64,000 nucleotides of DNA, taken from positions 84,386 through 148,385 of the forward strand of contig CAZWMQ010000001.1 in the NCBI GenBank assembly GCA_964635125.1. The letters run 5' to 3'. Numbering within the stretch: the first letter of the stretch is position 1; each line of letters opens with the position of its first letter. Both the position numbers and the translations under genes were made by a program. Under the pieces are notes generated by a model. It was not told the origin of the DNA. It saw nothing but the letters and a program-made list of their open reading frames with translations, and searched no databases. Of the stretch, positions 7,264 to 60,685 are shown in pieces. The stretch comes from an uncultured Candidatus Saccharibacteria bacterium (GTDB taxonomy: Bacteria; Patescibacteriota; Minisyncoccia; Phycocordibacterales; UBA5272).

Positions 7264-7376
7264 TAAATTGGCTTGTTTTATTTGAAAAAATACTTTTAAA
7301 ATGGTATAATTTGTTTATAAATTATTATAAATCTAACTAATAAGTTAGATTGTAATTTTCAAATTTAATTTAAAAT

Positions 7377-10472: not shown

Positions 10473-10509
10473 TTTAATTATGATATAATTTCTTATATCA
10501 TAATTTAGT

Positions 10510-11868: not shown

Positions 11869-11871
11869 AAT

Positions 11872-12783
11872 ATGAAAATTAATTTTAATAAATTTACCAA
11901 GCTAAAGAAAATAAGTTCAACTTTTATTTTAATTTTAATTTTTGTAAGTTTTATTTATAATTTGAATATAGGGAAAGTCTATGCAGTTAATCAAGAAAAG
12001 TTAGACCAGTCTTTTCAAAGTATTAATAGTTTAAGCGATAGTCGGACTGGACTTTTAACTTGTGATCCTAATGCCGCTCAAGATAGTTCAAGTTCTTGTA
12101 CTCCTAAATCAGCAATTTTACTAGGAGTTAAATTAGCTCAAGTTTTAATTTATATAATTATCATAGCTTTAATTCTGTTTCTAATAATTGGAGGTATTGG
12201 TTATGTTTACAACGGTAAGAATCCTGGCTATTTAAATAAATGGAAAAAACATATTAAAAACGCTGTCTATGCTTTATTAATTATTGTTTTTGGTATGGTT
12301 TTAGTTTTTGGATTATTAAGTGCTTTTAGATTTAAGTCGGATGTTTTAAATTTTATTAAAAATTTATTCGCTAATTTAAATTTTCAGATTATTCAGCATA
12401 GTTATGCCCAATCTTTATCATCTTTAGCCGAGAAGAGTACGAACGGAGAATATACTAATTTTTTCCCGGGACAGACTATTACTAGTATAATTTTAACTTC
12501 TATTAAATTTTTTATAAACTATATTGCCGCCCCAGCTTTAATTTTTGCAACGATTTGGTCTGGAGTCAGATTTGTTGCTGCTCAAGGTAACACCGATAAA
12601 TTAGTCAAAGCTAAGAAATTTGCTTTTAGAGTGGTAATTGGAATAATTGTAGCCGCGGCAGCTTATTCCGCATCTTCAATTTTTCTAAATACCATAAACG
12701 GAGTAGCTAAAGAATCTAGTTCGGTTAAGATAATAAATAAAAGCATTGGAAATTTAAATATAAACAACTTTAGATTCTTCTAA
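11872..12783 (+). CDS. Pilin-like membrane protein (signal peptide, Cys-containing region, two TM helices)
   Basis: 303 aa; architecture resembles the VirB2/TrbC-like small proteins downstream. Confidence 0.35.
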   Translation: MKINFNKFTKLKKISSTFILILIFVSFIYNLNIGKVYAVNQEKLDQSFQSINSLSDSRTGLLTCDPNAAQDSSSSCTPKSAILLGVKLAQVLIYIIIIALILFLIIGGIGYVYNGKNPGYLNKWKKHIKNAVYALLIIVFGMVLVFGLLSAFRFKSDVLNFIKNLFANLNFQIIQHSYAQSLSSLAEKSTNGEYTNFFPGQTITSIILTSIKFFINYIAAPALIFATIWSGVRFVAAQGNTDKLVKAKKFAFRVVIGIIVAAAAYSASSIFLNTINGVAKESSSVKIINKSIGNLNINNFRFF

Positions 12784-12832
12784 TAATCTTAAAATTAGAT
12801 ATTTTTCTTATGTTATAATTTTAGATAAAGAT

Positions 12833-13591
12833 ATGTCAAATTATAATAAATTTTTTCAAAAGTCAATTAAGTTTATTTTTGTATTTTTTTCAATTTATAT
12901 TTCTAATGTAATAATTTCTAAAGCTCAAGCTACTTTACCAGATTTTCAGGATATTGGAGGGTTGATTAAAAATTTTAATAGCAATATCTTACAGAATTTA
13001 GTCATATTATTGAGTGGAGTGGCAGTGGTTCTATTTTTATATGGATTAGTTAGATTTATTTTTCATCGTTCACAGGGAGGGGAATCTAGTAAATTAAAAG
13101 ATGATAAGAAGAATATGTTATGAGGTTTAGGAGCATTGTTTGTTTTAGTTACTTTATGGGGAATAATTGCTTTGGCTCAAGATATTTTAGGGGTAGATAA
13201 GAATAATAATATTCATATTCCAAAGATATGTGTTAGTGATAACTGTGATACGGTCTCATCTAATCCTGGTGGTGGCGGAGTGGTTAGCTCCATAGCTACT
13301 TGTCCAACTGGAACTATTGTAGCAACAGACGGATCTTGTCTTCCAAAAGTCCCAAGAGATACAAGTTGTGCGGACGGTTATATTAGAGACAGCAATACTA
13401 ATGAATGTGTAAAAGATACGAATTCTCCCGATACCCCCGATACTTCCAATATTAACAGTAAGAAATCTCCGGGAGCGATATGTACAGTTTTATCTGGCGG
13501 GAATAGTAATACTGAGTGTACAGAAGGATATTACTGTAAAAGTTCCACCCAGGTCACGGGTTCAATTGGTAAATGCACCAAACTCCCTTAA
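12833..13591 (+). CDS. VirB2/TrbC-like two-TM pilin-like protein with Cys-rich C-terminal domain (ORFs 12833 and 13136 joined via UGA-Trp)
   Basis: Signal peptide, TM1, short loop, TM2 (LFVLVTLWGIIALAQDILGV), then Cys-rich tail; same frame across TGA at 13121-13123. Confidence 0.45.
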
Positions 13592-13608
13592 TTTAATATT
13601 AAATATTT

Positions 13609-14523
13609 ATGAAAATAAAATTATTAAAATCTTTAAATGTTTTTAAAATATCATTTTTACTTTTTATCTTAAGTCTTTGTTTAAAGATAGGGAGAGCTTT
13701 AGCTCAAGATAATGCCGCTCAATCTACAAATAATTTTAAAGAAACTGCTAACAATATAGTTAATAATGTTTTAACTTCTGCTGGGACTTTATTGATGACG
13801 GCAGCTTTTATTTTATTTTTTTATGGAGTTGTAATGTTTATATATGGTAGAGTAACTAATAAAGGAGATTTAAAAGAATTAGAAAAAGGAAAGCAGTTCA
13901 TGTTATGGGGATTAATTGCTTTATTTGTCATGGTCTCAGCTTGAGGGATAATTAAGCTTGCCCAAGACATCTTTGATATTAAAGGGAATAATATCACTAT
14001 TCAACCAGTACAGTTTGCTCCGCTGGCATCGACCCCAAAACCTCCTGGTGGAGGGGATACTGACAGCATTGTACCTTTACAAGGGCTTGGAGGGTCTTGT
14101 AATACTAATTCAGAATGTCAAAATGGATTACAATGTAGCAATAAAACTTGTGTAAAAAAGTCTGTAAATAATCCTTTACAGAGCGGATCAGATGGTGTAA
14201 TACGAGAAAATCCATTTGCTAATACTGATATTTTTCCATTAATAAAGCCAGGATATAATAATGAAATCTTTTTAGCAAAATTAGTTACTGGTTTAAAAAA
14301 TAAAAAATGTACTCAAGCAACTTACAATAATGAAGTATATATTTTAAACAGTTCCTTTGGTTCTGTTTACGAAGGAGCAGATTTAGAATTTGTTAAACTT
14401 TTTCAAAAAGTAAATGGATTAAGTGCAGATGGGATAGTGGGTAAAGACACTTGGGAGGCTTTATCTGTAACAACAGGAATGAAGACAACTTTTACTGGAA
14501 TTATAGTTAAAGATTGTAAATAG
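13609..14523 (+). CDS. VirB2/TrbC-like two-TM pilin-like protein fused to a C-terminal peptidoglycan-binding (PG_binding_1-like) domain
   Basis: TM2 LIALFVMVSA-W-GIIKLAQDIF spans a UGA; Cys-rich linker; C-terminal GLSADGIVGKDTWEAL motif. Confidence 0.45.
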
Positions 14524-14585
14524 AGCTTATTTCTAAAGGGTTATTTAGGAGAATAACCTTAAATTCAACGAATTAATGCATAAAC

Positions 14586-14614
14586 TTGACATTTATTTTA
14601 CTTTAGTGTATATT
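14586..14614 (+). promoter_or_regulatory. Sigma70-like promoter (TTGACA, 17 bp spacer, TATATT) upstream of the gene at 14695
   Basis: Exact -35 consensus and a near-consensus -10 at optimal spacing. Confidence 0.45.
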
Positions 14615-14694
14615 ATTAGCAGTACTACTGTTCTTTGTATTGAGGTGAATACCTAGTCATAGAGCAGATTTTTTTAATATATTAAAAATTTTTT

Positions 14695-23159: not shown

Positions 23160-24464
23160 CTATCTCTTTCTTTGATTAATTTCACTCGCCCAATTCGGAG
23201 AAGTATTACGAATGGCATTATAAACAGCTCTAATTAATCAAAATGGAGCAATAAATGAATAAGTTAAGAAATAAGCAATGACTCCAACACTAAACTTTAT
23301 TTTCCGATTATACATACGACTACTTACATAGAAAGAGATTAAAAATATAATATAGAAAATTATTGAAATAAATAAAATAGCCGAAGTATTGATAAAGAAA
23401 GTATTATTAGAGAAACTAATATTCCAGAGAGACGATATACCAATAGCTGAAACTGTTAAATATTTCATATAAATATATTGATAGATATTAAAAATTATAT
23501 AAATAAATAAAAATATCACTGCAAAAATTGCTAAGAAACCAGTTGGTAAGGTCATAAAAGCTAAATTGCCATATTTAGGATTGAAAAGCATTCTTCGATA
23601 ATCGATGGTATTTTTAATAAATCCATATATCCATCTTTTTCTTTGTTTATAAAGGGCGGGAATATCTTTCATACCAGAAGTGAAAACATAAGCATTATAA
23701 GCATGCTCTACTCGCATGTGATGACTTTGCATTCTTAAAGTTATTTCTTGATCTTCAGTTTGATGTCCGCTAGTGTAAAGTCCGATCTGATCAAAAACTT
23801 CTCGTCTAAAAATTGGGAAAGTTCCTGAAATAACATTCATACTTTTAGTAAAAGAAAACATTTTCTTAATGAAGATTTGGAGTTGATAATCAATAGCTTG
23901 AGCAGATTGGATGAAGTTCTTCGCATTAACTACTGCCGTAGCTGGAGAAACCCCCATCACTTCTTTTTTGGTTACGAAAATATGCATCATACGACGAATA
24001 GTTTCCGGAGCCACAGTACAATCAGCATCAATTGAGCCAACAAAGGGAGTAGTGGAATTAATTATACCGAGATTTTGAGCGGTATATTTACCACCATTTT
24101 CTTTAGAGAATATTTGAATATTTGGATAATTTTTATATTCATTCATTATATCAATTGTATTATCAGTGGAGCCATCATTTACTAAGATTAAGAATAATTT
24201 CTCTTTTGGATAATCAGAGGCTAGAAGAGAATTAACAGTTTTACGAATATTTTCTCCTTCATTATAAGCGGGGACAGTAATAGTTACGTTTTGGCAATCA
24301 ATATCTTCTAATAAGGATTTAGCATCTTTATTTTTAATGTCTAATTCATCAAAAAATTCTAAAAAAGTCACTAAGAAATAGATCTGTATATATAGAGTGA
24401 TAAAAGAAGCCCCATAGAAGAAATATTCTATAAAATTAGAAATAGCCGAAAAAGTGTTAAGCAT
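23160..24464 (-). CDS. Family 2 processive beta-glycosyltransferase, multi-pass membrane protein (PgaC/NodC/cellulose-synthase-like)
   Basis: VTITVPAYNE, VNDGSTDNT, DADC, QRKRW (QxxRW) motifs; C-terminal TMs; continues 26 aa beyond the TGA at 23238-23240. Confidence 0.7.
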
Positions 24465-24561
24465 AAAAGATTTGACTTTATAATTATTTTATATTTTAGC
24501 ATATTTGGGTTATTTTTTCTATTTAAGAAAATAGCTTCAATATGATATAATTTTTAAAAAT

Positions 24562-25365
24562 ATGTCTAAAAATAGTTTAGAAAATAAAGAAAAAATATCT
24601 GGACATTTTCATCCGATTAGTATTATGGTGGCAGAGATTAGTAATATTTTTAATAGTCTTGATTTTAAAGTTATCGATGGTCCGGAACTTGAGCGAGAGT
24701 GGTTTAATTTTGATGCATTAAACATTCCAAAATCTCATCCAGCTCGAGACATGCAAGATACTTTCTATTTGGATTTAAAAGAGAATGTTTATGGTAAAGC
24801 CGTCTTAAGAACTCACACTTCTAATGTCCAGATCAGATATTTAAATAAAGTAACGGAAGAAATTAAGAATGGTAAAGATGAAGACGAAGTTTTTCCAATT
24901 GCAATTATTTGTCCAGGCAAAGTTTATCGTAATGAGGCAACCGACGCTACACATGAAGCCCAATTTCATCAAGTTGAAGGACTTTTAGTTGGAGAAAATA
25001 TTTCTATGGCTAATTTAAAAGCAACACTTGAAAAATTTCTTAGTGAATTATTTGATAGCGAGATTGATATTATTTTTAGGTCTAGTTATTTTCCATTTGT
25101 GGAGCCAGGGCTTGAAGTAGCTATGAGCTGTTTTAAATGTTCTGGGAATGGGTGTAATATTTGTAAAAAGACTGGTTATATTGAGATTATGGGAGCTGGC
25201 ATGGTTCATCCGAAAGTCTTAGAGAATTGTGGAATAGATTCGAGGAAATATACTGGATTTGCTTTTGGAGTTGGAATTGATAGATTAATAATGTTGAAAT
25301 ATGGTATTTCTGATATACGATATTTATATGATGGATATACTGATTTGTTAATTGAGAAGAAATAA
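24562..25365 (+). CDS. pheS: Phenylalanyl-tRNA synthetase alpha subunit (short form)
   Basis: Class II motifs (FRSSYFPFVEPG, GAGMVHP); precedes pheT. Confidence 0.9.
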   Translation: MSKNSLENKEKISGHFHPISIMVAEISNIFNSLDFKVIDGPELEREWFNFDALNIPKSHPARDMQDTFYLDLKENVYGKAVLRTHTSNVQIRYLNKVTEEIKNGKDEDEVFPIAIICPGKVYRNEATDATHEAQFHQVEGLLVGENISMANLKATLEKFLSELFDSEIDIIFRSSYFPFVEPGLEVAMSCFKCSGNGCNICKKTGYIEIMGAGMVHPKVLENCGIDSRKYTGFAFGVGIDRLIMLKYGISDIRYLYDGYTDLLIEKK

Positions 25366-25369
25366 CAAT

Positions 25370-27817
25370 ATGAAATTTTTACATAGTTGATTACAAGATT
25401 ATATTGTCGAGGAAATTCCAAAAGGAGAAGGGTTAGTTAAAGCGATTGAAACTAAAATTTTCGAAGTGGAAGAATATATAGAAATTCACAATCCGATAAA
25501 CGACAGTAAAGATTTTGTGTATGATTTGAATATTTTACCAAATAGAGCCCACGATGCTTTGGGACATTATTATTTGGCTTGTGATGTTGCGGCTATATTT
25601 AATTTTCAGATTAAAGATACGATTCAAGAGTTATCAGAGTTTAAGCATAGTTTAGAAATTATTGAGAGTGAGAATGATTTTATTAGAATAGAAAATAGTA
25701 AAAATTGTAGTAGATTTATAGGAGCGAAAGTTTCTGGGATTGTAGTAAAAGAAAGTCCAGAAATAATAAAGTATAGATTAAATAGTATTGGAGAAAAATC
25801 AATAAACAATATTGTTGATATTACTAATTATGTGCAATTCTCCTTTAATAAACCAATGCATGCCTACGATCAAGAATTAGTGAAAGGAGATATTGAAGTT
25901 AGACTAGCGGACGAAGGTGAGAAAATGACTACCTTAGACAATAAAGAATTGGATTTGAAAGATGATACTTTAGTAATTGCTGATAAAGAAAATATTTTAG
26001 CTCTAGCTGGAATTAAAGGGGGAAAGTATTCTGGGATTAATAGTGAGACTAAGAGTATAATTGTGGAGAGTGCGAACTTTATTCCGATCTTAATTCGAAA
26101 AACATCACAAATTTATAATTTAAAAACGGAAGCAAGTAAAAGATTTGAAAATGGTTTAGCTGATGATTTAGTAGAGATTGGAATGTTAGCTACTTTAAAA
26201 TTGTTGAGTGAGTTCGGTGGAGATGAAGTTAAGATAGATAAAGTAATTGATAATTTTCCAAATAAAAAGTTAGTAGAGTGGAAATATAAAGTTTCTGTTT
26301 CTTTAGTGGAAATTAATAAATTATTAGGGACGGATTTATTAGAGAGTGAAGTTGAAAGTATTTTCAAAAGATTAAATTTTAATTATAAATATATTTCGAC
26401 AGTCGAGTTGATTAAAGAATTAATCCCAAGAGTTCTTGGAAAGGGTTATAAGAATCCAAGCTCAATGCGAATCGATGCCCCAGAATATTTCTCTTGCTCT
26501 AGTTTAGTATCATATCTATATGAAGGAATTTATATGCCAAGTATTTCAATTGATAAATATTTATTTACTAGAGATTTGGGAAGTGAAATAAAAACTGAGA
26601 AGGATTTAAAATACGGAGATTTAATATTTCGTAATTCTGAAAATGGGAAAATCTATTATGAAGGAGTAGAATATCGAAAAGGTGGGAAAGTCATTGAGGG
26701 AGTAGATCATCTTGGTATGTATGTTGGGGACAATAAAGTTATTCATGCTTCGAGACATTTAAAAGATGGAGTTGAGATTGAGAGTTTGGAAGAATTTAGT
26801 AATAAGGGTAAGATTATTGGTTACGGAAGAGTTTTAGAAAATCTTGAAGAAGAAAGATTTGTGGTGGAGATACCAGCTGAGCGATTAGATCTAAGAATTA
26901 AAGAAGATATTATTGAAGAGATCGGTAGGATTTATGGATTTAATCAGATTAAATCTCAATTACCAAACTTAAAAAAGAAAGCTGAAATTAATCAAGAAGT
27001 AAATAAGATTAAGTTAATTAAGAATTATTTATATAGTTTAGGATTTAATGAAGTTCTAACTTATTCCTTACAAAAGAAAGGGGAGATTAAAATTTTAAAA
27101 TCAGTTGCTAAAGACAAGAACTATTTAAGGAATAATTTGAGTAGTGGCTTACAGGAAGCAATTGAAAAAAATATATTTAGATTACCATTATTAGGGGAGA
27201 TGGATGAAACTTTAAAAGAATTTAAAGTATTTGAATTTGGAAAATGTTTTAGTCTTAATGAAGACGGCAGTGAGAGAGAATGATTAAGTTTAGGGATTGG
27301 AATTGATGATAATGGTAAAAATAAGAATTATGAATTATTAAAGATAGAAATAATTAATAATCTTACAAGGATTTTAGAGATTAAGAGTGGGATAGAAATA
27401 GTGGAGAGTAAAAATAGTAAAGGTAAAAATAATATTTTCGAAATTAATTTTAGTGAATTATTAGATAGATCTAAATTAGAAATTAAAGAATTAATTAATT
27501 TAGATGTGAAAAATGATTATATTTATAAAGAGATTATTAAGACACCGTTCATTGTTCGAGATATTGCTCTTTGGACTAATCAAGATACTAAGGAGAGTGA
27601 GGTTCTTGAAATAATCTCATCTAAGATAAGTCCATTAGTGGTTAAATTAACTTTATTTGATGAATTTGAGAAAGAAATAGATGGAATTGTAAAAAAATCT
27701 TTCGCTTATCGCTTAGTTTATCAAGATAAAGAAAGAACCTTAACTGATGAGGAAGTTAATCAGGAGGCAGATCTAATTTATAAAGCTCTGAAAGAGAGAG
27801 GTTTTGAAATTAGATAA
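25370..27817 (+). CDS. pheT: Phenylalanyl-tRNA synthetase beta subunit (815 aa; two UGA-Trp codons)
   Basis: N-terminus MKFLHS-W-LQDY matches the conserved MKFSELWL; ORFs 25466 and 27401 share a frame across TGA 27281-27283; B3/4 and B5 domain features. Confidence 0.85.
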
Positions 27818-27856
27818 TAGTATATAAAATGTTATAATTAATCTATAAATAAATAT

Positions 27857-28804
27857 ATGGAAGAAAATAAAAATAATAAATTATCAGCTAAGTTTTTCTT
27901 TTTAACTTTAGGGAATATTATAAGTTTAATTACTATTATAATTACAGCAATTAATTTATTATTCTCTTTACTGGATAGATTTATTCCAGATGTTTTAACC
28001 GATGCATATGTTTATGGTTATAACTCTAATCTATATACTAATCTACAAACTCCATTAGCAATATTGATAATATTTTTCCCAATATTTTTTATTTTAGCTT
28101 ATTACTTCCGCACACATTTAAATAATTCTTTAAATAAAAAAGAATCTGGATTTCTAAAATGGGTGATTTATTTTATAATTTTCTTAGCCTCACTAACAAT
28201 AATTATTGATTTAATAACCTTGGTGCATTATTTTATTTCGGGGGAAATTACTTTAAGATTTATTTATAAAGTCGTCGGAGTGATTATATTATCTAGTATA
28301 ACTTTAACTTATTATATATCTTTATTAAAAGATAAAAAGAAAAATATTTTAGTTGAAGTTAAAGACTTTAATATTCGAAAGATATTAGGATTGATTTCTT
28401 TCTTAATCATCCTATCTTTAATTGTCATAACTTTTATAATTATGGGAAGCCCAAAGACGCAAAGGCAATATAGATTAGATAATTTAAAAGTTGATAATCT
28501 ACAATCTATCGAAGCTAATATTGATAATTATTATACTGAAAAGGGAGCATTGCCAGCGAAACTTACTGATTTAGAAATTAATTACAATCCCAATATAATC
28601 TATGATCCAATAAATAAAGAAATATTTAAATATGTAGTTGTAGATAAGACTAATTATAAATTATGTGCTAATTTCTTAACAGAAACTCCAGAGAAGACTG
28701 AATTATTAAGTAATAAATGGCATCACGGAGTAGGGGAAACTTGTTTTGATTTAAAAGTCAGCCAAATAAATAATAAATTATCTCCACAACCTCTAGATGA
28801 ATAG
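27857..28804 (+). CDS. Hypothetical polytopic membrane protein
   Basis: 315 aa, multiple TM helices plus C-terminal soluble domain. Confidence 0.35.
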   Translation: MEENKNNKLSAKFFFLTLGNIISLITIIITAINLLFSLLDRFIPDVLTDAYVYGYNSNLYTNLQTPLAILIIFFPIFFILAYYFRTHLNNSLNKKESGFLKWVIYFIIFLASLTIIIDLITLVHYFISGEITLRFIYKVVGVIILSSITLTYYISLLKDKKKNILVEVKDFNIRKILGLISFLIILSLIVITFIIMGSPKTQRQYRLDNLKVDNLQSIEANIDNYYTEKGALPAKLTDLEINYNPNIIYDPINKEIFKYVVVDKTNYKLCANFLTETPEKTELLSNKWHHGVGETCFDLKVSQINNKLSPQPLDE

Positions 28805-28857
28805 ATAAAATAAATAAAAATGCTCCGTGAGGAGCATTTTTAGTTTTAAAAATATTT

Positions 28858-29043
28858 TTAGTTTCTTTTCACTAGAGTCGGAGAATAATATTCTTTATCG
28901 TCTAACTCTAATTCTTCAAACTTTTCTAAAATATTTTTACTTTTTTTATTTTTCTGAATTTCATGATCCATCTTTTCTAATTCTTCATTAGAAAAAAGAT
29001 TTCCTTGCTTAACTCTCTCTTTTTGAGAAGCTTGTATATTCAT
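28858..29043 (-). CDS. Small hypothetical charged protein
   Basis: 61 aa ORF only. Confidence 0.2.
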   Translation of the reverse strand: MNIQASQKERVKQGNLFSNEELEKMDHEIQKNKKSKNILEKFEELELDDKEYYSPTLVKRN

Positions 29044-29224
29044 CTTAAAATATTTAAAGTTAAAGAATTAATCATTTTACTACTGTAAGTATATCATTAT
29101 TTGTAATGATATTTCACTAACTATATTATAGCATAATTATAATAATAAGTCAAGAAAAATCTGATAGAAATAGATGCAATTTATTCTAAAAAATGCTATA
29201 ATAAAGATATAATTTAAACTATAA

Positions 29225-31405
<2,181 letters not shown>

Positions 31406-31439
31406 GTTATAAATTTTTGTTCTGTGCTATAATTTTTAT

Positions 31440-32213
31440 ATGAAGATTATTAATTATAATGATAAGATCATTTTATATTTTTTACCTAAAAATGATGGTA
31501 AATTTAGATTTAAAATTAGGTTTAATAACTTTTCTTTTGGTGAAAGTTTTGCCACAACAACAAAACCATTTACTGATAAAGTATATTTAGAATGGCAAAT
31601 AGGTTATGATGCATTAATTAAAGATACGATAGTTGGAAAAGATGAAAAAAAATCAAAAAAACACACATCTCTAACAAACATATCTTTTAAAGGCTTTAAT
31701 AAAAAAGATAAATATCTATATGAATTATCAGAAATATTCTTTTTTCTTTTCAAAAATAATATAATATCTTCTAATTTTATAGAAGATTTGATAAAAGAAA
31801 TAAAATCATATAAAGAGTTTATAAGCGATAAAGATATTTTTATAGAAAAAGATTTAATAAATGTAATTATAAATAATATAGATTTTAAAGAAACTACTAC
31901 CTCTTTACCGACTTTCTTTTATTATCCTAAAACAGGTGCAACTCAAATAGAAGTTTTTATACAAAAACAGCAATATGCCACTGGTGTTCAGCCTATGGTT
32001 TATTATTCTATACCAGTAAAAAGTTTTAAAAATGGAGAAAATATAATAGGAAAAACATATAAAGATTTAAAAGATAAAGTAGAACTAGAATATGTCATTG
32101 ATAAAAGTAATGCTTCTAATTTTATAGATCTTATAAAAATTTTTGGTATGTGTAGTCCAGCACATAATTTTGATATTTTAGAAATATTAAATTCAATATT
32201 GAAATATAGATAA
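31440..32213 (+). CDS. Hypothetical protein; candidate type II restriction endonuclease partner of the downstream methyltransferase
   Basis: 257 aa; co-directional, 1-bp gap to the methyltransferase; very low GC; no homology recognisable by eye. Confidence 0.3.
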   Translation: MKIINYNDKIILYFLPKNDGKFRFKIRFNNFSFGESFATTTKPFTDKVYLEWQIGYDALIKDTIVGKDEKKSKKHTSLTNISFKGFNKKDKYLYELSEIFFFLFKNNIISSNFIEDLIKEIKSYKEFISDKDIFIEKDLINVIINNIDFKETTTSLPTFFYYPKTGATQIEVFIQKQQYATGVQPMVYYSIPVKSFKNGENIIGKTYKDLKDKVELEYVIDKSNASNFIDLIKIFGMCSPAHNFDILEILNSILKYR

Positions 32214-32214
32214 T

Positions 32215-33396
32215 ATGATACAAAAACATTTAACAAAACAAAAGCAAATTGAATTAGGTAGTTTTTATACTCCTGATTATTTAGTGGATAAGATGTATTC
32301 TATTATAGATGACTATCTTAATAGTAATAATATAAATAAAAAATCTATATTATTTTTTGATAATGCAAGCGGTTATGGAGCTTTTTATAGACCGAATAGA
32401 GATTTTATTATGGCAGATATAGATGAAAAAGCAATAGAAAAAATCAAAAAGAAATTGAGAATTAAAAATAAGAGTTTATTTATTACTAATTCTTTAGAAA
32501 ACGTTAGTAGAAATAAATTTAACATTAATAAGGATAAATTTCTTATTAATATTGGTAACCCTCCATATAATGATACTACTTCCATAATTAATAATGGTAA
32601 AAAAGGTAATTTTTCTTGTGATTTAGATTTAGTAGATAGAGATATGGGTATTTCATTTTTAAAATCCTTCAATAAATTAAAATCAGATATAGTTTGTGTA
32701 TTACATCCATTATCTTATTTAATTAAAGAAGCGAACTTTAAAAGATTAAAAGACTTCAAAGATAATTATAGAATTATATATGGAGAAATATTTTCTAGTG
32801 AACATTTTTCAGGAACAGGTAAAACAAAATTTCCTATAGTATTAGCTTTATACGAAAGGAGTCATTCAGGGATGGATTTTTCTTATATTAAAAATTTTAA
32901 TTTTAATATATTAAATCAGAAAAAGAAGTTTAAATTGTTAAATTTTAAAACTACAGATGGATTTATTTATAAATATCCAAAAGAAGTTTTTAATATGAAT
33001 AATTTTTCTGGTTTTTACTACTATACATTTAGAGATATTAATTCTCTTAAAAGAAATTCTGATTTTTTATTTGAAAGAAATTATAATTCCATTTCTATAA
33101 GTATAGATGAACTATATAAATATGCTTATTTATATAGTTTTAAAAAGTTGTTTAGTCCAAAAGATATATGAATTTATGGGAATTTATCTCCATTGTTAGA
33201 TGAAGAAATTGAGAAATTTAAAAAAGAATATTTATTATTTTCAGTACTAGATTCTGGACTTCATAAAAATATAAGCATAGATCTAAAAAGAAAAATAAAA
33301 TCTTATTATAAATTAGATAGAAATTATTATAAATCTGATTTAAAAGAATTAAAAAAAATTGTGGAACAAAGAATTAATAGTTTAGCTACTATTTAA
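32215..33396 (+). CDS. N6-adenine DNA methyltransferase, gamma class (TaqI/Eco57I-like)
   Basis: Motif X GSFYTPDYLVDKM (compare M.TaqI VETPPEVVDFMV), motif I FDNASGYGAF, motif IV NPPY; UGA-Trp at 33169-33171 joins ORF 33193. Confidence 0.75.
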
Positions 33397-33397
33397 T

Positions 33398-35155
33398 TTA
33401 TTTTTTATTTCTTACTTCCTTCCCCAACTTCTCCATTAACTCCTCCATACTTAAATTAAATTTCTCACCACTCAAACTCTCTAAACTAACTTTATTTTCA
33501 TCGATCTCTTTATCTCCAATTACAATTCAATATGGATATTTCATATTTTTAGCATAGCGGACTTTCTTTCCAAGATTATCTTTATTGTCGGCTAACTCCA
33601 CTCGAAAATTCTGAGCTTTTAACTTTTCATAAACTTGATTCGCATATTTGTTATGCTTCTCTAAATTAACCGGAATAATTGAGAGTTGAATAGGGGCAAT
33701 TCAGAGTGGAAATTCTCCAGCTACATGTTCAATATAAACTGAGAGAAATCTCTCCAAACTTCCAGCAATCGCACAATGTATCATGACCGGTCGATCTCTC
33801 TTACCTTCTTCATTTACATATTCTAATTCTAAATTCTCTGGTTGTATAAAGTCTAATTGCACAGTGGCAACTTGATGTTCTCGTCCAATCGCATCACTGG
33901 CCATGAAGTCTATCTTAGGTCCATAAAAAGCTGCTTCACCCTCGCCATCAATATAATTCTCCCCAACTCTTTTCTCTAGTAGAGCTTTAATGGCTCCTTC
34001 GGCTTTCTCTCAAGTCTCTAGATTACCTTTGAACTTAGGATCATTGTCACGACGAGAGAATCTATATTTTAAATTCGTAAAGTTAAATGTCTTATAAAAT
34101 GTCTCAATTAAGTCTCAAAGTTGATTAACTTCACTTTCAATTTGAGACTCACGACAAAAGATATGAGCATCATCTTGAGTAATTGATAAGACACGAGATA
34201 ACCCACTTAATTCTCCAGATTGTTCATCACGATAAACCATGGTGGTCTCTGAATATCTAATTGGTAATTCTTTATAACTCCTTAACTCTGAAGCATAAAT
34301 CTGGGCATGGTGAGGACAATTCATCGGCTTCATACAGAGTATATGTCCATCTCTTGTTTCAATTTTAAATAAATCCTCTTGATACTTCTCTCAGTGACCA
34401 GATTTAACATATAAATCTTTCTTAGTTAGATGTGGAATAGTTACTCCTTGATAACCATCTTTAGCTCTTAATTCTTGGACGAAATTATCAACTACTTTTC
34501 TTAAAATAGTTCCCTTTGGTGTTCAAAGTGGAAGTCCTGGTCCAACTAAGTCTGAGAAAATAAACAATCCTAATTCTTTCCCCAAGATACGATGATCTCT
34601 TTTTTTGGCCTCCTCGATCTGAACTTTATAATTCTCTAACTCTTCTTTATTTTGAAATGCTAGCCCATAGACACGAGTAAGCATTTTATTTTTCTCATCA
34701 CCTCGCCAATAAGCTCCAGCTGTATGGGTAATTTCAAAGCTATTAATATCAATCTCTTTTAAATCCTCGACATGTCCACCACGACAAAGATCGGTAAAGT
34801 CTTGAATAGTGTAAAGTGTGATCTTTTCGCCACGAGAGACAATCTCTTCAATTAATTCTAATTTATATGGGTTATTTTTAAAATAATTCTCAGCTTCCGT
34901 CTCATTAATTTCTTGATGGGAGAAAGTTCCGCCTTGTTTAATCTTCTCTCTCATCAACTTAGTTAATTCTTGAAAGTCCTCAGGAGTGTTAGGTTTATTA
35001 TCAGTTACGAAATCAATGTCATAGTAAAATCCATTTTCAATCGCTGGACCTAAAGTTAAGAGGACTTGTGGATATTTTTCAATTATTACACTAGCTAAAA
35101 TGTGAGCTAAGGTATGTCTAATATGAGCTAATTTTTCTTGATCTTCTTTTGACAT
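33398..35155 (-). CDS. thrS: Threonyl-tRNA synthetase lacking the N-terminal TGS domain (585 aa; at least 5 UGA-Trp codons)
   Basis: Alignment to E. coli ThrRS: [33 protein letters not shown]; three track ORFs on one frame. Confidence 0.9.
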
Positions 35156-39323: not shown

Positions 39324-42300
39324 ATGGGTAATAGTAGAGCAAGAACTAATAAAAAAAGAACCCTAAGAGAAATTATAACTTCTAAGATGAGTAAAGAGGA
39401 TAGAGATGTCTTAATTAAGCGAGAAGCGGAAGAGTATTTAGCTATTTGTAGAGACGAATCTTGCCATAAGGTAGTTAAACAAGTAAAGAAGTCTAAGCAT
39501 TTTTTAAAATGAGCTATTAAACTAATCTTACCTGATTTTTTAGTTGGACATCCTAATCTTTTTGATAATTTCCGAACTCTACGAACCCATCCACAATTCC
39601 ATGCTTTTCGGAGAGCGATAATTGCTTGGATAATATTTACTGTAATAGTCAGCTCATCCGGAATCTATTCTTTAATTAATGCTAAAAAAAGTAGTGCTCA
39701 AGTACAATTTCAATTTAAAACTGGATATTATTTAGGGGCCGGAGATGGAACAGTCAAACATATTACAGGCTTAGGATTTAAGCCGGAGGTCTTGATAATA
39801 AAAGCTGATACTACAGCAGGATATGCAATATTTAAAACAGCCTCTATGTCAAGTGGAGAATATGCTTATTTTGCTGCTTCAGCAGATAATGTAGAGAATC
39901 AAATAACTTTTGATGACGATGGTTTTACTTTACAATTAAATGGAGATGTCAATGCTAATAATGTTATTTATAAATATATTGCCTTCGCCGGCAATGATTG
40001 TTCTTCATCTGGAGTAATGTGTTACGGTTCTTATAATGGAAATTATGTAGTCGGGTCACCTAATCAGACTATAAATACAGGATTTAGTCCTGATCTTGTA
40101 ATTGTAAAACGTACCATAACTACAGCCGCTAATTTTCTAACTTCTGTTATGCCAGATTCTGGAGCAGGATATGCTAGTTTTTTCACAGCTACGGCCGACG
40201 ACACTACTGCTAATTATTTTCCGGCGAATTCCATTAGCAGTAATGGGTTTACGGTGGGTCCATCTAACAATACTTATGCCGGATTATTTTATTATTTAAC
40301 TTTTAAAAAAGGTGCTGGGATTTTAGATGTCGGAAGTTATACTGGTAATGGAACTAGTCAAACCATAAGTCCTCCATTAATGTCTCAAGTTACTCCAAAC
40401 TTCGTACTTACTAAAGCTACCACTGCAGTTTTGCCTGTATTTAATACGACTCAAAGCTACGGTGACTATTCAAGTGTTTTATCTAATGCTGCTAATGTTA
40501 CTGGAGCTATAAAGCAATTAATTCCAGGCGGTTTTTCATTAGGTAATAGTAGCTATTCTAATAGTAATAATACAGGTTATTGATATTTTAGTTTTGCTGG
40601 TGGGAACATGCCGGTAGCCAACGGTTCATTTTTAATGAAAGCAGGATCATATGTTGGAGATGGCAGTGCTAACCGTACAATTGGAGATATAGGATTCACC
40701 CCTGATTTAGTTATTGTAAAATCTGACGGACCAGATTATGCAATTTGAAGCACATCCATGGATTATAATTTTTCTCATTATTTTTCAGTAGCCTTAGCTG
40801 GCATAACCAATGCTATTTTAGGTATGGTTAATGGCGGATTTACCATAGGATCACATTCTACAGTTAATACTAATGGTACAACTTATCATTATGAAGCTTT
40901 TGGAAATGCTTCAACCCCATTTGCAGGTGGGAGAGCGGCTGATTTTGTAATCGGAGCTTATACTGGTAATGGTTTAGTGAGAGATATAACTAATTTACCA
41001 GTTAGTCCTGACATGGTGATGATAAAAGAAAACGGTACAGATGCAGCGACTGTTTGGTCTTCAACTATAATGGCGACAGGGACAACAGCTTTCTTATCAG
41101 CAACAACTAACGATGTTTCTGGAAATTTAATCAAACAGATTAATTCAGATGGATTTTCTTTAGGTACTAATAATATTGTAAATCGATCTGGTTATGTAAA
41201 TAATTTCTTTGCCTTTTCAAAAAGTGCTGCTTTTAATATAGGATTATATACAGGTTCTGGCAGTCAGCAAGATATAACTACTACCGATGGAAATACTGCC
41301 ATAGGGTTTACCCCAGATTATGTCATAACTAAAAGAAGTACCAATGTTGATCCTGCTCATCGATCAAGCGCAATAGATTTAGGAAATACGACTCAGTATT
41401 TTAAAAATGTGGCTAATTTTAATAATGGTATTACTGATATTATTAATGGAGGATTTAGAGTGAGTACTGACGCCACCGTTAATACAAATAGTGGAACTTA
41501 TTATTTTTTTGCTTGAAAGGCTAGTACAGCTACAACTTCACCAGCAACACCAGTTAATGTTTCTCCACCTGATAATGCTTCTGATATTGGTTTAAACGAC
41601 ACTTTACAAGCTTCTGCTTATACAGATTTAAATCCTCAATTAGGTACTATGTGACAAATAGCAGATGATCCAAATTTTAATTCTTTAGTTTGAAGTCGAA
41701 CAACAAATAACGCTGAAACAAGTATTGTTATTAATTCTAGTAATGGAGTGTTTTCCGGTTCTTTAAATGGAAAACAAAAGCTTAAACACAACACTAATTA
41801 TTATTGAAGAGTAAAGTATTCTAATAGTGTGTATTCAGCATGATCGACCTCAACCTCTTTTAAAACTTTAGCAATAGATAAACCAACTAATATTTCTCCA
41901 ACAGATCAAGAAATTATTAGCACATTGAGTCCACTTCTAAGCGCTTCTACTTTTTCTGATCCAGAAGTAGGGGATACAGCAAATTTAGTTGAATGACAAA
42001 TAGATACTAAGATTAATTTTGACTCACCAATTTACGATTCGGGATCTATTAGCTATAATAATTCTATAACAATTCCAGACGCGACTCTTTCTGATAGGAC
42101 GGTATATTATTGAAGAGTTAGGTATTTGGATTCTGATAATCAATGATCTGATTATTCAACACCTACCAGATTCTTAACTTCTAAAGAAGCAGAAGTCTCG
42201 GTCAATCCTCTTTTCGGAGGGAATGTAGTTAATCAAGGAGACCAGGTAAAAATTGATGCCCAAGTTAAGACAGTAGATGGTTTAGCAGTTAATGATGCTA

Positions 42301-45300
42301 CAACGACAATTAGTATTTATAATCCTTCTGGTGCGAAGATTATCAATAATGAGACGATGAATTACATCGCATCATCTAGTGGTATTTATCGATATCCATT
42401 TACTATTCCAAATATTGATGGAAGTTATTTGTATGAAATATCTGCAAAGACTGGTATATATAATGGACTAGGAGCAGCAAATTTTGAAGTTAGAAATACA
42501 GCACAAGATATAGCTGATACAAAATCTACAGTGGTAAATAATAACAATCTAATTACTGACACTAAAAATATTGCCTCAAATACTCAAAATCTTACAAATA
42601 ATATAAAGACTACGGTGGAAGATACTCAAAACATTGCTTCCAATACTCAAAATCTCGCGAATAATATAAAAACCACTGTAGATGACACACAGTCTATCGC
42701 TTCTTCTACGAATTCTCTAACTTCTTCTATTAAAAATACAGTGGAGAGTAATAAAGCCAACCTAGATATTTTAGTTGGAGCTTTTATTGTGACTCAAGGA
42801 TCGGTGAATGACGCTTCTCCCACAACTAATTCTTTTATCTCTTCTCTGACGAATTCTACTGATAATTTTTATAAAAATTCAGTCTTAACTTTTACTTCTG
42901 GAGTCTTAGACGGACAAAGTAGAAGAGTCAGTGATTATAGTGGGACTACTAAGAGATTCACTTTAGATCCTGCTTTGACTAATGCACCAGTTACGGGAGA
43001 TACTTTTACTATCACTACCCAAAATGTCCGAGTCGAAGAACAAGTTGCTGATCACGAGGCCTCATCTTCAGCTTTTCGAGCTGACACTACTTCTCGTTTA
43101 ACAAGTATTGAAGGTAAAGTAGATTCAATTATCTCAACTTTAAATACTGTAGATTCTAATTTAGATGATGCTCAAAGTATGCTTAATCAAGTAAGACAAG
43201 CTCAAAATAATAATTATACTATTGAGTATTCTGATATATCTAAAATTCAAGCTGGGACCACTTATCGTGCTAAATTAACCATTTTAGATTTTCAAGATAA
43301 GCCAGTTGATGCTTCTTCCACTCCGTCTGTGATAATTTATGATCCTACACGAGCAACAGCTACAGGTACTCCAGCCACTATGACTAGGCTCTCAACTGGA
43401 GTTTATGAATATACTTATATCACTAGTACTGATGCCGTGGCTGGATTGTGAGAGAGTGTAGCTACAATTAATATAAACGGAGAAAATATTACAAAGAATG
43501 ATTATTTTGAAGTAGCCGGAGCTCCTGCTCAGGTGTTTATTAATAGTATAAGTAATACTAATATCCCTAATATTTCAGCTGAAACAACAATTACCAACGA
43601 AGGAGGGGGAGAATATGAATATCATTATGAATGATGTGTAGTCTCAACTGAAAACAATCCTTGTGGAGGAAGTGATGATATTTATTATGCTTCCGGAGCT
43701 AAGCTTATATCACCTGGACAGAGTTTTACTCCAACTTTGACCGCCACAGTCAATCAGATTGGTGATTATTGGTTTAAGTTAGTCGTATATTATGGTACAG
43801 AAGTAAGTGCAGCTTCAAGAACATTTACAGCCACTAATAATATAAATAACAATGGTAATAGTAGTGGTAGCAGTGGAGGGGGTGTCTCTTATAATCCCGC
43901 TAGCCAAACAGATATATATCAAGAATTAACAGATATTCATAATCAATTAGATATAAATTCTCAAAAGCTTTCGGCCACCTTAGATAGTCTAGGAATTATT
44001 AATCCAGTTTTAAAAAATCTTTTAGAAGTAGTTAGTTTAAGTAGTAATAATTTAAAAGACACCCAGAATAAAGTTGCCGATCTTAAAGCTATTTCAGCAA
44101 CTATTAGACAAATTGTCGATGGAGGAGCAACTACACCAACTGTAGAGACCTATATGAAATTTAATTCTGTTGAAATTCATTTTCTTATTACCAATCCTTC
44201 AGATGAAGCTCAGACAGTAAAATTTAAAGCTTTCTTGCCAGCTGAAGCTAAACCAGAAAATATAATGAATTTAGACGGATTACAAATAGACTATGATACA
44301 AATGCTAATAGTTATTATGTTCACGGGGATATTTATCTAAAAGCAAAAGAAAGTATTGCCAAGGAAGTCGAGATGAAAGATATCTGACAATTTTCTAAAG
44401 AAGAAATACAATCTATCAGAGACCAAGTCTCAGAATTAATTGGATTATTAAAAAAATCTCAATATGAAACTGATGGAGTATTATTAAAAAATAGTATAGA
44501 ATCAACATTAAATATTATTACAAATAAACAAGACGAGAGTTATTCCTCCCCTCAAGAACACATTGTTACATTTAGAGAAAATCAAGAGAGAATGCTAGAA
44601 GTTAAAAATAATTTAGAGAAATTAAAGTCTTTAGTTTCAGAGGCTAATAATTCTAAAAGTATAGTTGGAAATATTGGAGGTATACAAACTTTTGCTACCT
44701 GAGGAATTATTTTAGCTATTGTCTTTGGATTCGCTTTACTGGCTGTTGTGATATTTGCTATGTGAAGGCATCAAACCATTTTAGCTACACAAGCTTTAGG
44801 TTTAAGTAAATTAGATACAGATAAGCATTTTGGTAAGAAAGTATTTGATAAATACTCAAATGTAGATATTAATGAGGAGGCAGGATATTTTCATCAACAT
44901 AAGTCTATTAAAAAGATAGTCTTAGTTATTATTTTATCCTCAATGATTATAGTATTTGGTATTTTTGCTTCCAGGTATATATATAGATTTAAAGATATAT
45001 CATTTTTGAAAAATATAAAAGTAATCGATGATAAAGTTAATGTAAATAACACTTTAATTAAAGAAGAAGATAAAGGCGATACTAGTGTTCCCACAAGCGA
45101 GGAAAAAGCTAATACTAATTTAGCTCAAAATGATTTAGATAATATAAGCTCTAACAATACTGATTTATTGGAAATATTAAATACTGAAACGGGCTGACTA
45201 AATGTTAGAAGTGAACCATCTTCTAAATCTGATTTAATCAATAAAGTATATCCACAAGAGAAATATCAGTATATAGACAAAAAAGATAATTGGTATAAAA

Positions 45301-45362
45301 TTATATTAAAAGATAAATCTACAGGTTGGGTCTATGATAAATATGTTAAAATCACCAATTAA
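39324..45362 (+). CDS. Giant cell-surface protein (about 2012 aa) with N-terminal cytoplasmic basic segment and TM, tandem beta-rich repeats, FN3/Ig-like segments with conserved YYWRV, 21-aa tandem repeats, two C-terminal TMs and a C-terminal bacterial SH3 (SH3b) domain; at least 15 UGA-Trp codons
   Basis: Six track ORFs (39324, 39792, 40758, 42357, 43737, 44943) and the intervening segments all lie in one frame with no TAA/TAG; UGA falls at W of repeated YY-W-RVKY/RVRY motifs; C-terminal WLNVRSEPS..GWVYDKYVKI SH3b-like. Confidence 0.75.
42567..42755 (+). repeat. Three tandem 63-bp (21-aa) repeats NIASNTQNLTNNIKTTVEDTQ inside the giant gene
   Basis: Direct tandem repetition at DNA and protein level. 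Confidence 0.8.
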
Positions 45363-54327: not shown

Positions 54328-54401
54328 GCTCCCATAGCTCAGTTGGTTAGAGCATACGGCTTATATCCGTAGGGTCCTTGGTTCGAGTCCAAGTGGGAGC
54401 A
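54328..54401 (+). tRNA. tRNA-Ile (anticodon UAU, reads AUA)
   Basis: Cloverleaf: acceptor gctccca/tgggagc+A, anticodon stem tacgg/ccgta, loop ctTATat, T-arm cttggttcgagtccaag. Confidence 0.75.
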
Positions 54402-54441
54402 CTTTGAGAATTTTTCTGAGTGAAGTAAAGATATTGTAGAT

Positions 54442-60681: not shown

Positions 60682-60685
60682 CATA

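Follow-up and report, generated by a model that had tools for sequence, protein, structure and literature searches.

A two-gene module at the gyrB/thrS junction

The window, by which we mean the whole 64,000-nucleotide stretch analysed, holds two co-oriented genes, here called R and M, between gyrB and thrS. R lies upstream of M, and because its TAA stop ends at 32213 and the ATG of M starts at 32215, the gap between them is 1 bp, the spacing already given in a first-pass annotation made by eye. The thrS stop codon lies 1 bp from the M stop. The features are as follows.

29228..31405, + strand: gyrB, left flank of the insertion site; 3 in-frame TGA codons read as Trp
31425..31433, + strand: extended -10-like element TGCTATAAT, ending 6 nt 5' of the R start codon; read from the sequence
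31440..32213, + strand: R gene, encoding a 257-aa restriction DNA glycosylase of the PabI (HALFPIPE) family, predicted to excise adenine at GTAC
32215..33396, + strand: M gene, TGA read as sense; its 393-aa product is a predicted N6-adenine DNA methyltransferase of the gamma class, from the bacterial lineage of M.PabI homologues
33169..33171, + strand: in-frame TGA of M, codon 319, encoding Trp319
33398..35155, - strand: thrS, right flank, convergent with M; 6 in-frame TGA codons read as Trp

The methyltransferase ORF reported in the first pass is present, but its product has 393 aa and not the 394 aa given, a figure reached only by counting the stop as a codon. The extended -10-like element fits a pattern, TGnTATAAT followed by 6–9 nt and ATG, that is kept 5' of R in L003, L011, and L008, and TGCTATAAT is possibly a module-borne promoter giving a leaderless or near-leaderless R-M transcript. 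A consensus promoter scanner did not list it because it has no -35 element; in the promoter/terminator scan, promoter-like sites were no commoner than in shuffled controls, and no terminator was found at the module.

[quoted passage not shown]

Enzymes of the PabI family are rare and, rather than cleave the DNA backbone, cut out an adenine base. Restriction glycosylases are the sole known restriction enzymes that attack the base and not the backbone. R had been described as an REase with no recognisable fold, a description that database searches overturn. A Pfam search matched it to PF09522 (E = 1.6e-16, 60.9 bits, against a curated cut-off of 25 bits), and phmmer matched it to PDB entry 7cfa (R.CcoLI; E = 1.9e-23, residues 18–255) and to R.PabI (E about 7e-06; PDB entries 2dvy and 3waz). 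Its AF2 model (pLDDT 90, pTM 0.88), a predicted HALFPIPE fold, had 16 significant Foldseek matches in the PDB, every one a chain of R.CcoLI or R.PabI, and the best TM was 0.83. The residues Y56/H242/D245 of R align with the known catalytic Tyr/His/Asp (Y68/H211/D214 in R.PabI and Y52/H222/D225 in R.CcoLI; PMC7806768) and are invariant in 17 homologues, and K91 is the equivalent of the R.CcoLI AP-lyase Lys71.

These matches bear directly on the first-pass reading of the locus as a conventional type II system with R as a phosphodiester-cleaving endonuclease, unrecognised in sequence, of the PD-(D/E)xK, HNH, or similar type. The gene-pair architecture is typical of type II restriction-modification (R-M), and PADLOC labels R generically as REase_II. 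Nevertheless, Pfam, NCBIfam, and PDB sequence searches returned no PD-(D/E)xK, HNH, GIY-YIG, or PLD family matching R, no nuclease fold appeared among the structural matches of its model in the PDB (Foldseek), and the glycosylase Tyr/His/Asp and AP-lyase Lys are conserved. We regard an endonuclease as very improbable; since R falls in the PabI/HALFPIPE family of restriction DNA glycosylases, it is not a phosphodiesterase, and the REase label falls under the condition set in the first pass itself, a match with a non-nuclease family.

M is predicted to be the methylase that matches R

The first pass had placed M in the gamma class from its motif order X, I, IV (NPPY), and alignment with 19 homologues upholds that placement, as the core residues are invariant: L14, G15, Y18, T19, and P20 for motif X (GSFYTPDYLVDKM, residues 15–27), D49, A51, G53, G55, and F57 for motif I (FDNASGYGAF, residues 48–57), and G114-N-P-P-Y118 for motif IV (NPPY, residues 115–118). 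The catalytic domain spans roughly residues 1–215, with the target-recognition region C-terminal to it, and the C-terminal half is also conserved in the alignment with homologues.

M itself had no Pfam or NCBIfam match at E ≤ 1 and no match in a PDB sequence search. Because M alone matched nothing in these databases, its family was set through homologues, PADLOC, fold prediction, and gene linkage. More than 2000 homologues have about 390 aa, some with PF02384 or PF07669, and many of those at 47–54% identity carry one or both. M also matches the PADLOC entry MTase_II PDLC03275 (E = 1.8e-60) and is 43% identical (E = 7e-75) to the methylase of a classical Campylobacteraceae PabI system with M before R (L070). 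The top PDB folds for its AF2 model (pLDDT 81) are CamA and M.BseCI (E from 6e-08 to 1e-06). As for linkage, 46 of 80 genome loci have the M family beside a homologue of R.PabI, R preceding M in 33 of these 46, the commonest order among environmental homologues; M adjoins R in all four metagenomic relatives looked up. A dN/dS of about 0.1 points to purifying selection on M, which we take from its sequence and neighbours to be the gamma-class N6-adenine methylase matching R. It is highly likely that the two genes form a genuine R-M pair of the PabI family, and in this form the type II-style pair proposed in the first pass survives, with R as a glycosylase.

GTAC is depleted in the window

The specificity of R was assessed from the ten residues common to R.PabI and R.CcoLI that read GTAC, mapped from PMC7806768 onto our alignments (K17, R19, E47, Q49, I50, Q158, Q164, M166, Y168, and F215 in R.CcoLI). 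R is identical at all ten (K21, R23, E51, Q53, I54, Q178, Q184, M186, Y188, and F235), and these positions are invariant in a 17-sequence clade alignment. The 64-kb window contains 46 GTAC sites where 77 are expected (O/E 0.59), and O/E is 0.58–0.59 in L003 and L008; for close relatives without the module at the junction (51 kb), it is 1.22 (99 observed, 81 expected). The depletion is moderate, with ACGT and GCGC more depleted than GTAC in the window, and GTAC is not depleted in the 10 kb of the module-bearing L011 locus (16 observed, 14 expected).

Two readings that keep R in the PabI family have to be weighed here. In the first, R would have a specificity other than GTAC, which would fit its identity of only about 30% to R.CcoLI and 20–23% to R.PabI, an insertion beside the active site that is 16 residues longer, and the stronger depletion of ACGT. 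Given that the ten base-contacting residues common to both characterised GTAC enzymes are conserved and that GTAC depletion follows module presence, we find this quite unlikely. In the second, the system would be decayed or repurposed, with R inactive or serving as a repair or other glycosylase and M effectively an orphan regulatory methylase. R decay is frequent in the PabI family, often in Helicobacter (Kojima & Kobayashi, PMC4615327; PMC10273834), 46 GTAC sites remain in the window, and L011 shows no depletion. However, R is full length with all catalytic and recognition residues intact, its dN/dS of about 0.2 across three lineages argues for purifying selection, and GTAC is depleted relative to module-free relatives; decay or repurposing is accordingly hard to credit, and we hold it to be distinctly improbable. 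For the pair as a functional PabI-family system, we infer GTAC/m6A specificity and enzyme activity of both R and M. The lower GTAC O/E (0.59, as against 1.22 in relatives lacking the module) gives indirect support to a predicted adenine excision at GTAC that methylation would block and that would need no divalent metal.

The TGA in M is a tryptophan codon

The host, a very small and uncultured member of the Patescibacteria, reads UGA as Trp. Across the 59 window genes there are 61 in-frame TGA and 73 TGG codons, and when these genes are compared with those of relatives, a TGA in the window is matched by Trp in 41 of 45 cases. UGA=Trp in the class Minisyncoccia has already been described in two 2026 papers, and we rejected the idea that it was unreported in Patescibacteria. 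In agreement with the first-pass codon counts, R has no TGA (and one TGG), and M has a single TGA near its 3' end, at codon 319, with 74 sense codons between it and the stop.

The first pass had explained this TGA as a former standard-code stop. On that account a donor with the standard code would have passed the module on recently, and the donor's stop would now be read through into a 74-residue tail; the presence of one TGA in M and none in R, and a module GC unlike that of the flanks, would both fit. Alignment of the M C-terminus with homologues gives a different picture: they do not end at the TGA position, where 19 homologues have an invariant Trp (W319) followed by an invariant YGNLSPL. 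The 74 residues after the TGA are homologous in the 19 standard-code proteins, with 10 further invariant columns, and homologues from standard-code organisms have about 389–396 aa and cover 99–100% of M. The two closest orthologues (L003 and L011), at the same locus, have TGG at this codon. One TGA among the two Trp codons of the module also fits the host TGA:TGG ratio of 61:73. A read-through donor stop is thus vanishingly improbable, and these alignments indicate that the TGA is a TGG-to-TGA change in a host with recent UGA=Trp adoption. The choice of code affects annotation directly, as gene calling with table 11 splits M into ORFs of 318 aa and 67 aa and also fragments gyrB and thrS, and a Logan contig called under table 4 yields a 393-aa product (P0242) identical to M. 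The contigs recur in SRR11845619, SRR11845633, and SRR11845634.

Full-length M requires UGA=Trp, because W319-YGNLSPL and the rest of the 74 further residues lie at or after the TGA. Since M needs this code and R has no TGA, the module depends on the genetic code of its host. This dependence might amount to a code lock, confining the module to the recoded lineage and possibly forming a one-way barrier to outward gene flow, a proposal that we consider speculative and rather unlikely. If true, a module moved to a standard-code member of the Paceibacterota, of which many are closely related to the host, would produce intact R and a truncated 318-aa methylase, probably inactive, and would kill standard-code recipients rather than establish in them. 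The TGG-to-TGA change hints that toxin-like modules can be stranded, or turned into weapons, where genetic codes differ.

The module is an old insertion of low GC

The junction between gyrB and thrS is empty in three relatives (L094, L096, and L127), with 15–50 bp between the two stop codons; therefore the module is an insertion, as the first pass had proposed. These loci came from a thrS search of metagenome contigs, which returned no close relatives (≤ 58% identity). The empty-junction relatives are distant, and closer relatives carry other cargo at the junction; such cargo was found in L092, L099, L105, L122, and L173–L176. The same module occupies the same junction in L003–L007 and L011, and lies elsewhere in L008 (MliC/uvrB) and in L009/L010 (gatC/gatA). 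L008 keeps the extended -10 upstream of R despite its different genomic locus.

That two relatives with the standard code carry the module at the same junction shows the insertion to be old. A recent transfer, as implied in the first pass, does not agree with occupation of this junction in relatives that share only 83% identity in gyrB. These comparisons point instead to a module that was inserted into the junction and has been inherited under purifying selection. Neither a target-site duplication nor terminal inverted repeats turned up in a search for repeats flanking the module, which gave only AT-rich matches of low complexity; no mobility gene was found at the module, and a scan of IMG/VR viral contigs with an R profile found no homologue and so none that was phage-borne. 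The dS of R and M (0.55–1.1) is lower than that of thrS and gyrB (1.3 to saturated), a comparison made unreliable by extreme third-position AT bias; the lower values could reflect exchange of the module among relatives.

Both genes had been noted as more AT-rich than their flanks, and the measured GC bears this out (R 21.2% and M 20.5%; gyrB 35.5% and thrS 34.4%). They have the two lowest GC values of the 59 window genes (z = -2.6 and -2.8) and the two lowest GC3 values (0.105 and 0.112; z = -2.3 and -2.1). We give somewhat less than an even chance to the explanation that the low GC, rather than marking foreign origin, comes from mutation pressure towards AT and weaker constraint, both acting on accessory genes of an AT-rich genome. 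Other accessory genes at the junction are equally AT-rich (a partial ORF in L173 has 18% GC), the module in L003 has a GC3 of 0.16–0.18, above its flanks at 0.09–0.12 and thus the opposite of the window, and residence has been long enough for amelioration. On the other side, R and M are the extremes among 59 genes, and the empty sites show insertion independently of composition.

A model for the module

We propose that the module entered a lineage of the Paceibacterota (Minisyncoccia) at the junction of the convergent gyrB and thrS, where the ancestral spacing was tight, and has also adopted the new code of its host, the sole Trp codon of M now being TGA. The host lineage was assigned from the names attached to gyrB homologues; an Rfam scan for rRNA gave no match. 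R and M are probably co-transcribed, R first, from the module-borne extended -10 promoter, and M may be translationally coupled to R across the 1-bp gap. M would methylate the adenine of GTAC in host DNA at N6. R, as a homodimeric HALFPIPE DNA glycosylase, is predicted to excise the adenine at GTAC, and the two closely opposed abasic sites would give rise to a double-strand break, either through its own AP-lyase K91 or through a host AP endonuclease. As an explanation of the locus as a whole, a PabI-family R-M system is one in which we place strong confidence.

Distribution of the PabI family

The current review (PMC10273834, 2023) confines restriction glycosylases to Helicobacteraceae/Campylobacteraceae and a small number of hyperthermophilic archaea. 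The window led to 131 genome loci. The PabI family is far more widespread than published accounts allow, with members in Patescibacteria and in over 15 further groups at phylum or class level. Some homologues are orphans, with a signal peptide and no adjoining methylase of the M family. The window adds a member that is intact and maintained by selection in the ultra-small genome of one of the Patescibacteria, and together with the 131 loci it reveals a large environmental clade that has a gene order of its own, with R preceding M. Two points extend beyond the family: table-11 calling breaks M, gyrB, and thrS in a UGA=Trp genome, which is a lesson for annotation, and the switch from TGG to TGA at an invariant Trp position, in a gene of a mobile element, marks the residence time of the module in its host. 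The understanding of how the PabI family works is unchanged by the window module.

Comparison with known systems

The N-terminal domain of M has a predicted class I SAM-methyltransferase fold (Foldseek E about 1e-7 against CamA and M.BseCI), and M shares with CamA, M.BseCI, and M.TaqI-like enzymes the motif order X, I, IV and a C-terminal target-recognition region. Only the catalytic domain superposes on CamA and M.BseCI (TM about 0.35–0.40), and the C-terminal domain of M is family-specific.

R.PabI/M.PabI of Pyrococcus abyssi is the founding HALFPIPE restriction DNA glycosylase system. R and R.PabI both belong to PF09522 and share a fold (2dvy, 3waz, and 5iff; TM 0.74–0.82), the catalytic Tyr68/His211/Asp214 of R.PabI are kept in R, and R is predicted to share its GTAC recognition and metal-independent base excision. 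Neither the beta-sheet insertion nor the AP-lyase lysine of R is found in R.PabI, whose loop K154 corresponds to Gln177 in R, with a Lys one position earlier. The archaeal PabI genes are arranged tail-to-tail, and their methylase is longer and barely related (PMC4615327).

Closer counterparts are the mesophilic bacterial PabI-family GTAC systems R.CcoLI/M.CcoLI (Campylobacter coli) and R.HpyAXII/M.HpyAXII (Helicobacter pylori). For M.HpyAXII, Humbert & Salama (2008) reportedly used the GTAC enzyme RsaI to test whether plasmid DNA becomes protected. R aligns with R.CcoLI over its full length (TM 0.83), with Tyr52/His222/Asp225 equivalent to Y56/H242/D245 and Asp53, Asn67, and Lys71 to D57, N87, and K91, and all ten R.CcoLI contacts to guanine, thymine, adenine, and cytosine are kept. 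The insertion beside the catalytic Tyr that marks the mesophilic enzymes, and not R.PabI, is present in R, where it is 16 residues longer than the R.CcoLI type. M, with 393 aa and a longer C-terminus, exceeds the about 350 aa of the methylases in these systems, and its host, a member of the Patescibacteria with UGA=Trp, is unlike theirs. Gene order differs too: the CcoLI and HpyAXII systems have M then R, and the window module has R then M. Published PabI systems have either co-oriented genes with M first, in bacteria, or tail-to-tail genes, in archaea (PMC4615327), and the R-before-M order matches neither lineage. Gene order describes these published lineages and does not define the family, and R and M are an additional member of an already known, unusual family, one in which R precedes M.

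A low-GC gene pair packed between gyrB and thrS

With only TAA and TAG taken as stops, ORF calling gave two co-oriented genes, R and M, separated by one base; thrS runs towards M, and the two stops are 1 bp apart:
29228-31405, plus strand: gyrB
31425-31433: TGCTATAAT, a TGnTATAAT element ending 6 nt before the R ATG
31440-32213, plus strand: R, 257 aa
32215-33396, plus strand: M, 393 aa
33169-33171: TGA, codon 319 of M
33398-35155, minus strand: thrS

The two abutting ORFs of the first-pass annotation are thus borne out, with M at 393 aa instead of 394, a figure that had included the stop codon. R and M have the lowest GC (21.2% and 20.5%, z = -2.6 and -2.8; gyrB 35.5%, thrS 34.4%) and the lowest GC3 (0.105 and 0.112) of the 59 non-overlapping genes of the window, confirming that the pair is markedly AT-richer than its flanks. 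The TGA counts were also as first noted, none in R and one in M. The GC contrast is real, yet ambiguous as a sign of foreign origin: in L003, an activated-sludge locus carrying the same module, module GC3 exceeds that of the flanks.

The TGnTATAAT element, followed by 6-9 nt and an ATG, recurs in the related loci L003, L011 and L008. Its retention even in L008, where the module occupies a different locus, suggests a module-borne promoter that would yield a leaderless or near-leaderless transcript; M would then be translationally coupled to R over the 1-bp gap. In a consensus promoter scan, support for this element was not above chance.

R is a predicted restriction glycosylase

R had been described as lacking a recognisable fold. 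It matches Pfam PF09522 (RE_R_Pab1) at 60.9 bits (cut-off 25), and its residues 18-255 align with the restriction DNA glycosylase R.CcoLI (PDB 7cfa, E = 1.9e-23); R aligns less strongly with R.PabI structures. With 17 homologues as input, an AlphaFold model (pLDDT 90) gave, in place of the PD-(D/E)xK or HNH core initially envisaged, significant PDB fold matches to only 16 chains, all R.CcoLI or R.PabI (TM up to 0.83); the first match beyond these has E = 0.15.

Residue roles assigned in the structural study of R.CcoLI (PMC7806768) were transferred to R via sequence alignments. The catalytic Tyr52/His222/Asp225 of R.CcoLI, equivalent to Y68/H211/D214 of R.PabI (PMC7806768), correspond to Y56/H242/D245 of R, the active-site neighbours Asp53 and Asn67 to D57 and N87, and the AP-lyase Lys71 to K91. 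The ten base-contacting residues of R.CcoLI (K17, R19, E47, Q49, I50, Q158, Q164, M166, Y168, F215; PMC7806768) have counterparts in K21, R23, E51, Q53, I54, Q178, Q184, M186, Y188 and F235. Most mapped residues are invariant in a 17-sequence alignment; of the exceptions, N87 is variable and K91 almost invariant. R also has the beta-sheet insertion beside the catalytic Tyr that sets the mesophilic enzymes apart from R.PabI, longer here by 16 residues. With family, fold, catalytic and base-contacting residues all kept, R is predicted to be a base-excising restriction glycosylase, with GTAC as its predicted target. We rejected a phosphodiesterase, since R belongs to the base-excising family.

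In R.PabI-family homologues from Verrucomicrobia and Acidobacteriota (L025 3881-4720; L075 3872-4726; L082 3917-4729; probably L073-L091) the N-terminus resembles a signal peptide, e.g. MRKIAVILFALICLTFRAFCADADYK, and no M-family methylase adjoins the gene. These homologues may be secreted orphan HALFPIPE glycosylases. Proteins P0187 and P0211 have a similar N-terminus.

M is a predicted gamma-class methyltransferase partnered with R

M alone had no match in Pfam, NCBIfam or PDB sequence searches. It has more than 2000 homologues about 390 aa long; among those sharing 47-54% identity with it, many bear PF02384 and/or PF07669. M also matches a PADLOC type II methylase model (E = 1.8e-60). In a 19-sequence alignment the motif cores are invariant (L14-G15..Y18-T19-P20; D49..A51..G53..G55..F57; G114-N-P-P-Y118) and the C-terminal half that follows is conserved, upholding the motif order first read as that of a gamma-class N6-adenine methyltransferase, the architecture assigned to M from its sequence. 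The AF2 model (pLDDT 81) most resembles CamA and M.BseCI, both gamma-class adenine methylases, and does so in the catalytic domain only. Directly after NPPY, residues 119-142 (about 32569-32640) form a loop of very low pLDDT, about 36, rich in invariant residues (N119, D120, S123, G128, K130, G131, C135, D136, D138, D141, R142). The loop probably binds DNA or a base and is ordered only on substrate.

Scanning species-representative genomes with an R profile found 131 loci, 80 of which were kept; in 46 of these 80 a methylase of the M family adjoins R. R precedes M on the same strand in 33 of the 46 and follows it in four, while three pairs are convergent and six divergent. M is the predicted cognate partner of R. 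In L070, a Campylobacteraceae system and one of the four loci with M first, valS is followed by an M of 350 aa and then an R of 238 aa resembling R.CcoLI. Its M is 43% identical to that of the window (E = 7e-75), which places the latter in the bacterial 'M.PabI homologue' lineage of Kojima & Kobayashi (PMC4615327); the window M differs in being longer at the C-terminus and in its opposite gene order.

The closest R homologues in some Patescibacteria (47-53% identity; L012 4736-6507; L013 4754-6526; L018 1656-3426) have other partners: a 376-aa gamma-type methylase (QYFTK...EPSFGTGNF...GNPPF), unlike M, and a 212-aa DPPY methylase. The R gene of L018 is apparently truncated at 167 aa.

The UGA codon of M encodes an invariant tryptophan

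The host reads UGA as Trp. Across 59 window genes there are 61 in-frame TGA and 73 TGG codons, with TGA in 25 of the 59 (e.g. gyrB, thrS and gene 39324-45362). When the TGA codons of gyrB, thrS, pheT and M were aligned pairwise with relatives, 41 of 45 comparisons matched them to Trp and the other four to Tyr or Leu. Called independently under table 4, a second contig from this organism gave the same 393-aa M (P0242). No tRNA-Trp(UCA) lies within the 64-kb window. The window does encode a tRNA-Ile with anticodon UAU (54328-54402), uncommon in bacteria, and a tRNA-Ile(GAU) (60608-60682).

The TGA of M had been explained as a donor's standard-code stop that became sense after transfer. It sits instead at W319, an invariant column followed by invariant Y321-G-N-L-S-P-L327 and further invariant positions up to residue 365. 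Standard-code homologues (Desantisbacteria, Firestonebacteria and others) do not end there: they run to 389-396 aa with 99-100% query coverage. The same-locus orthologues in L003 and L011 have TGG at this position. We therefore rejected the former stop; codon 319 is a TGG-to-TGA substitution, silent in this host. One of the two Trp codons in the module is TGA, in line with the host-wide 61:73.

In-frame TGA is absent from the relatives L173, L003, L011 and L174-L176, whose gyrB is up to 90% identical. The window fits the 2026 reports that first described UGA=Trp in Patescibacteriota (class Minisyncoccia, family JAKLIH01, genus GCA-2747955; bioRxiv 10.64898/2026.05.24.727570; PMC13092985). The NCBI-sourced sequences include a 318-aa form of M (P0003), indicating that table 11 was used for the public record, and because this form lists NCBI as its source the deposited annotation of the organism is probably mis-coded. 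Table-11 public calls across 29228-35155 (P0003, P0121) break gyrB into four ORFs, thrS into several, and M into 318-aa and 67-aa pieces.

As R lacks TGA and M needs UGA=Trp for its invariant C-terminal motif, a standard-code relative receiving this copy should make R without functional M.

A variable junction holding an inherited module

The host is a Patescibacteria organism. Among its gyrB relatives with a name, the best are Candidatus Paceibacterota (81%), Parcubacteria (79%) and Nomurabacteria (79%). More distant relatives (L094, L096, L127) have an empty convergent gyrB/thrS site with 15-50 bp between stops, in agreement with the proposed insertion of the module. Other relatives carry different cargo:
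L105: uracil-DNA-glycosylase-like and small toxin-antitoxin-like genes, read by eye from translations
L174-L176: SAM-methyltransferase genes
L173 (gyrB 90% identical to that of the window): AT-rich membrane-protein-like gene
L092, L099, L122: other small ORFs

L003-L007 (activated sludge; gyrB 83%, M 81.5%, R 68.5% identical) and L011 (M 80%, R 72%) carry the same module at this junction. L003 has an extra 156-aa ORF beside the pair. Empty, other-cargo and module-bearing states across relatives make the junction a variable spot in this clade. Acquisition of the module at this site predates the split between the window, L003 and L011 lineages, and purifying selection has accompanied its inheritance since (dN/dS of about 0.2 in R and about 0.1 in M).

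More divergent copies occur at other loci. The L008 copy has MliC (plus a C5-methylase fragment) on one side and uvrB on the other. L009/L010 (Patescibacteria; 7259-9191) have an R-then-M copy (M 59% identical) between gatC and gatA, an operon insertion such as Kojima & Kobayashi reported (PMC4615327); there R and M overlap by 8 nt. A repeat search found no flanking repeats around the module, no mobility genes flank it, and an R-profile scan of viral contigs found no phage copies.

GTAC avoidance

The window has 46 GTAC sites where a maximal-order Markov model predicts 77 (O/E 0.59), making GTAC the third most avoided 4-bp palindrome. The module carriers L003 and L008 gave O/E of 0.59 and 0.58, and 51 kb pooled from L173-L176, close relatives without the module at the junction, gave 1.22 (99 against 81). 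Since depletion is only weak in L009 (O/E 0.82) and absent in L011 (10 kb), the signal is supportive of R activity and specificity, not decisive. The sites left in the window are clustered: 14 of the 46 fall at 39702-43795, inside the 6-kb gene 39324-45362 (2012 aa), and 11 within 10245-14622; 24016 to 33244 is GTAC-free.

Two palindromes are more strongly depleted than GTAC across the whole window: ACGT, with 8 sites for about 31-33 expected, and GCGC, with 6 for about 26. L003 and L008 also lack ACGT. The pattern suggests that these genomes have further restriction systems elsewhere, or are under another constraint.

Relation to the known family

Published work already covers the family, including its mechanism and selfish mobile behaviour (PMC4357717, PMC4615327, PMC7806768, PMC10273834), and NCBI names Paceibacterota homologues 'R.Pab1 family restriction endonuclease'; the window pair therefore adds a member to a known family. 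It departs from the literature in three respects: gene order, breadth of distribution and host genetic code. R before M is neither of the two orders described (PMC4615327). As carriers of the family, a 2023 review names only Helicobacteraceae/Campylobacteraceae and a few archaea (PMC10273834); loci from our R-profile scan come from Saccharibacteria, Paceibacterota, Atribacterota, Omnitrophota, Acidobacteriota, Planctomycetia, Verrucomicrobia, Bdellovibrionales, Acholeplasmataceae, Mycoplasma, Treponema and others.
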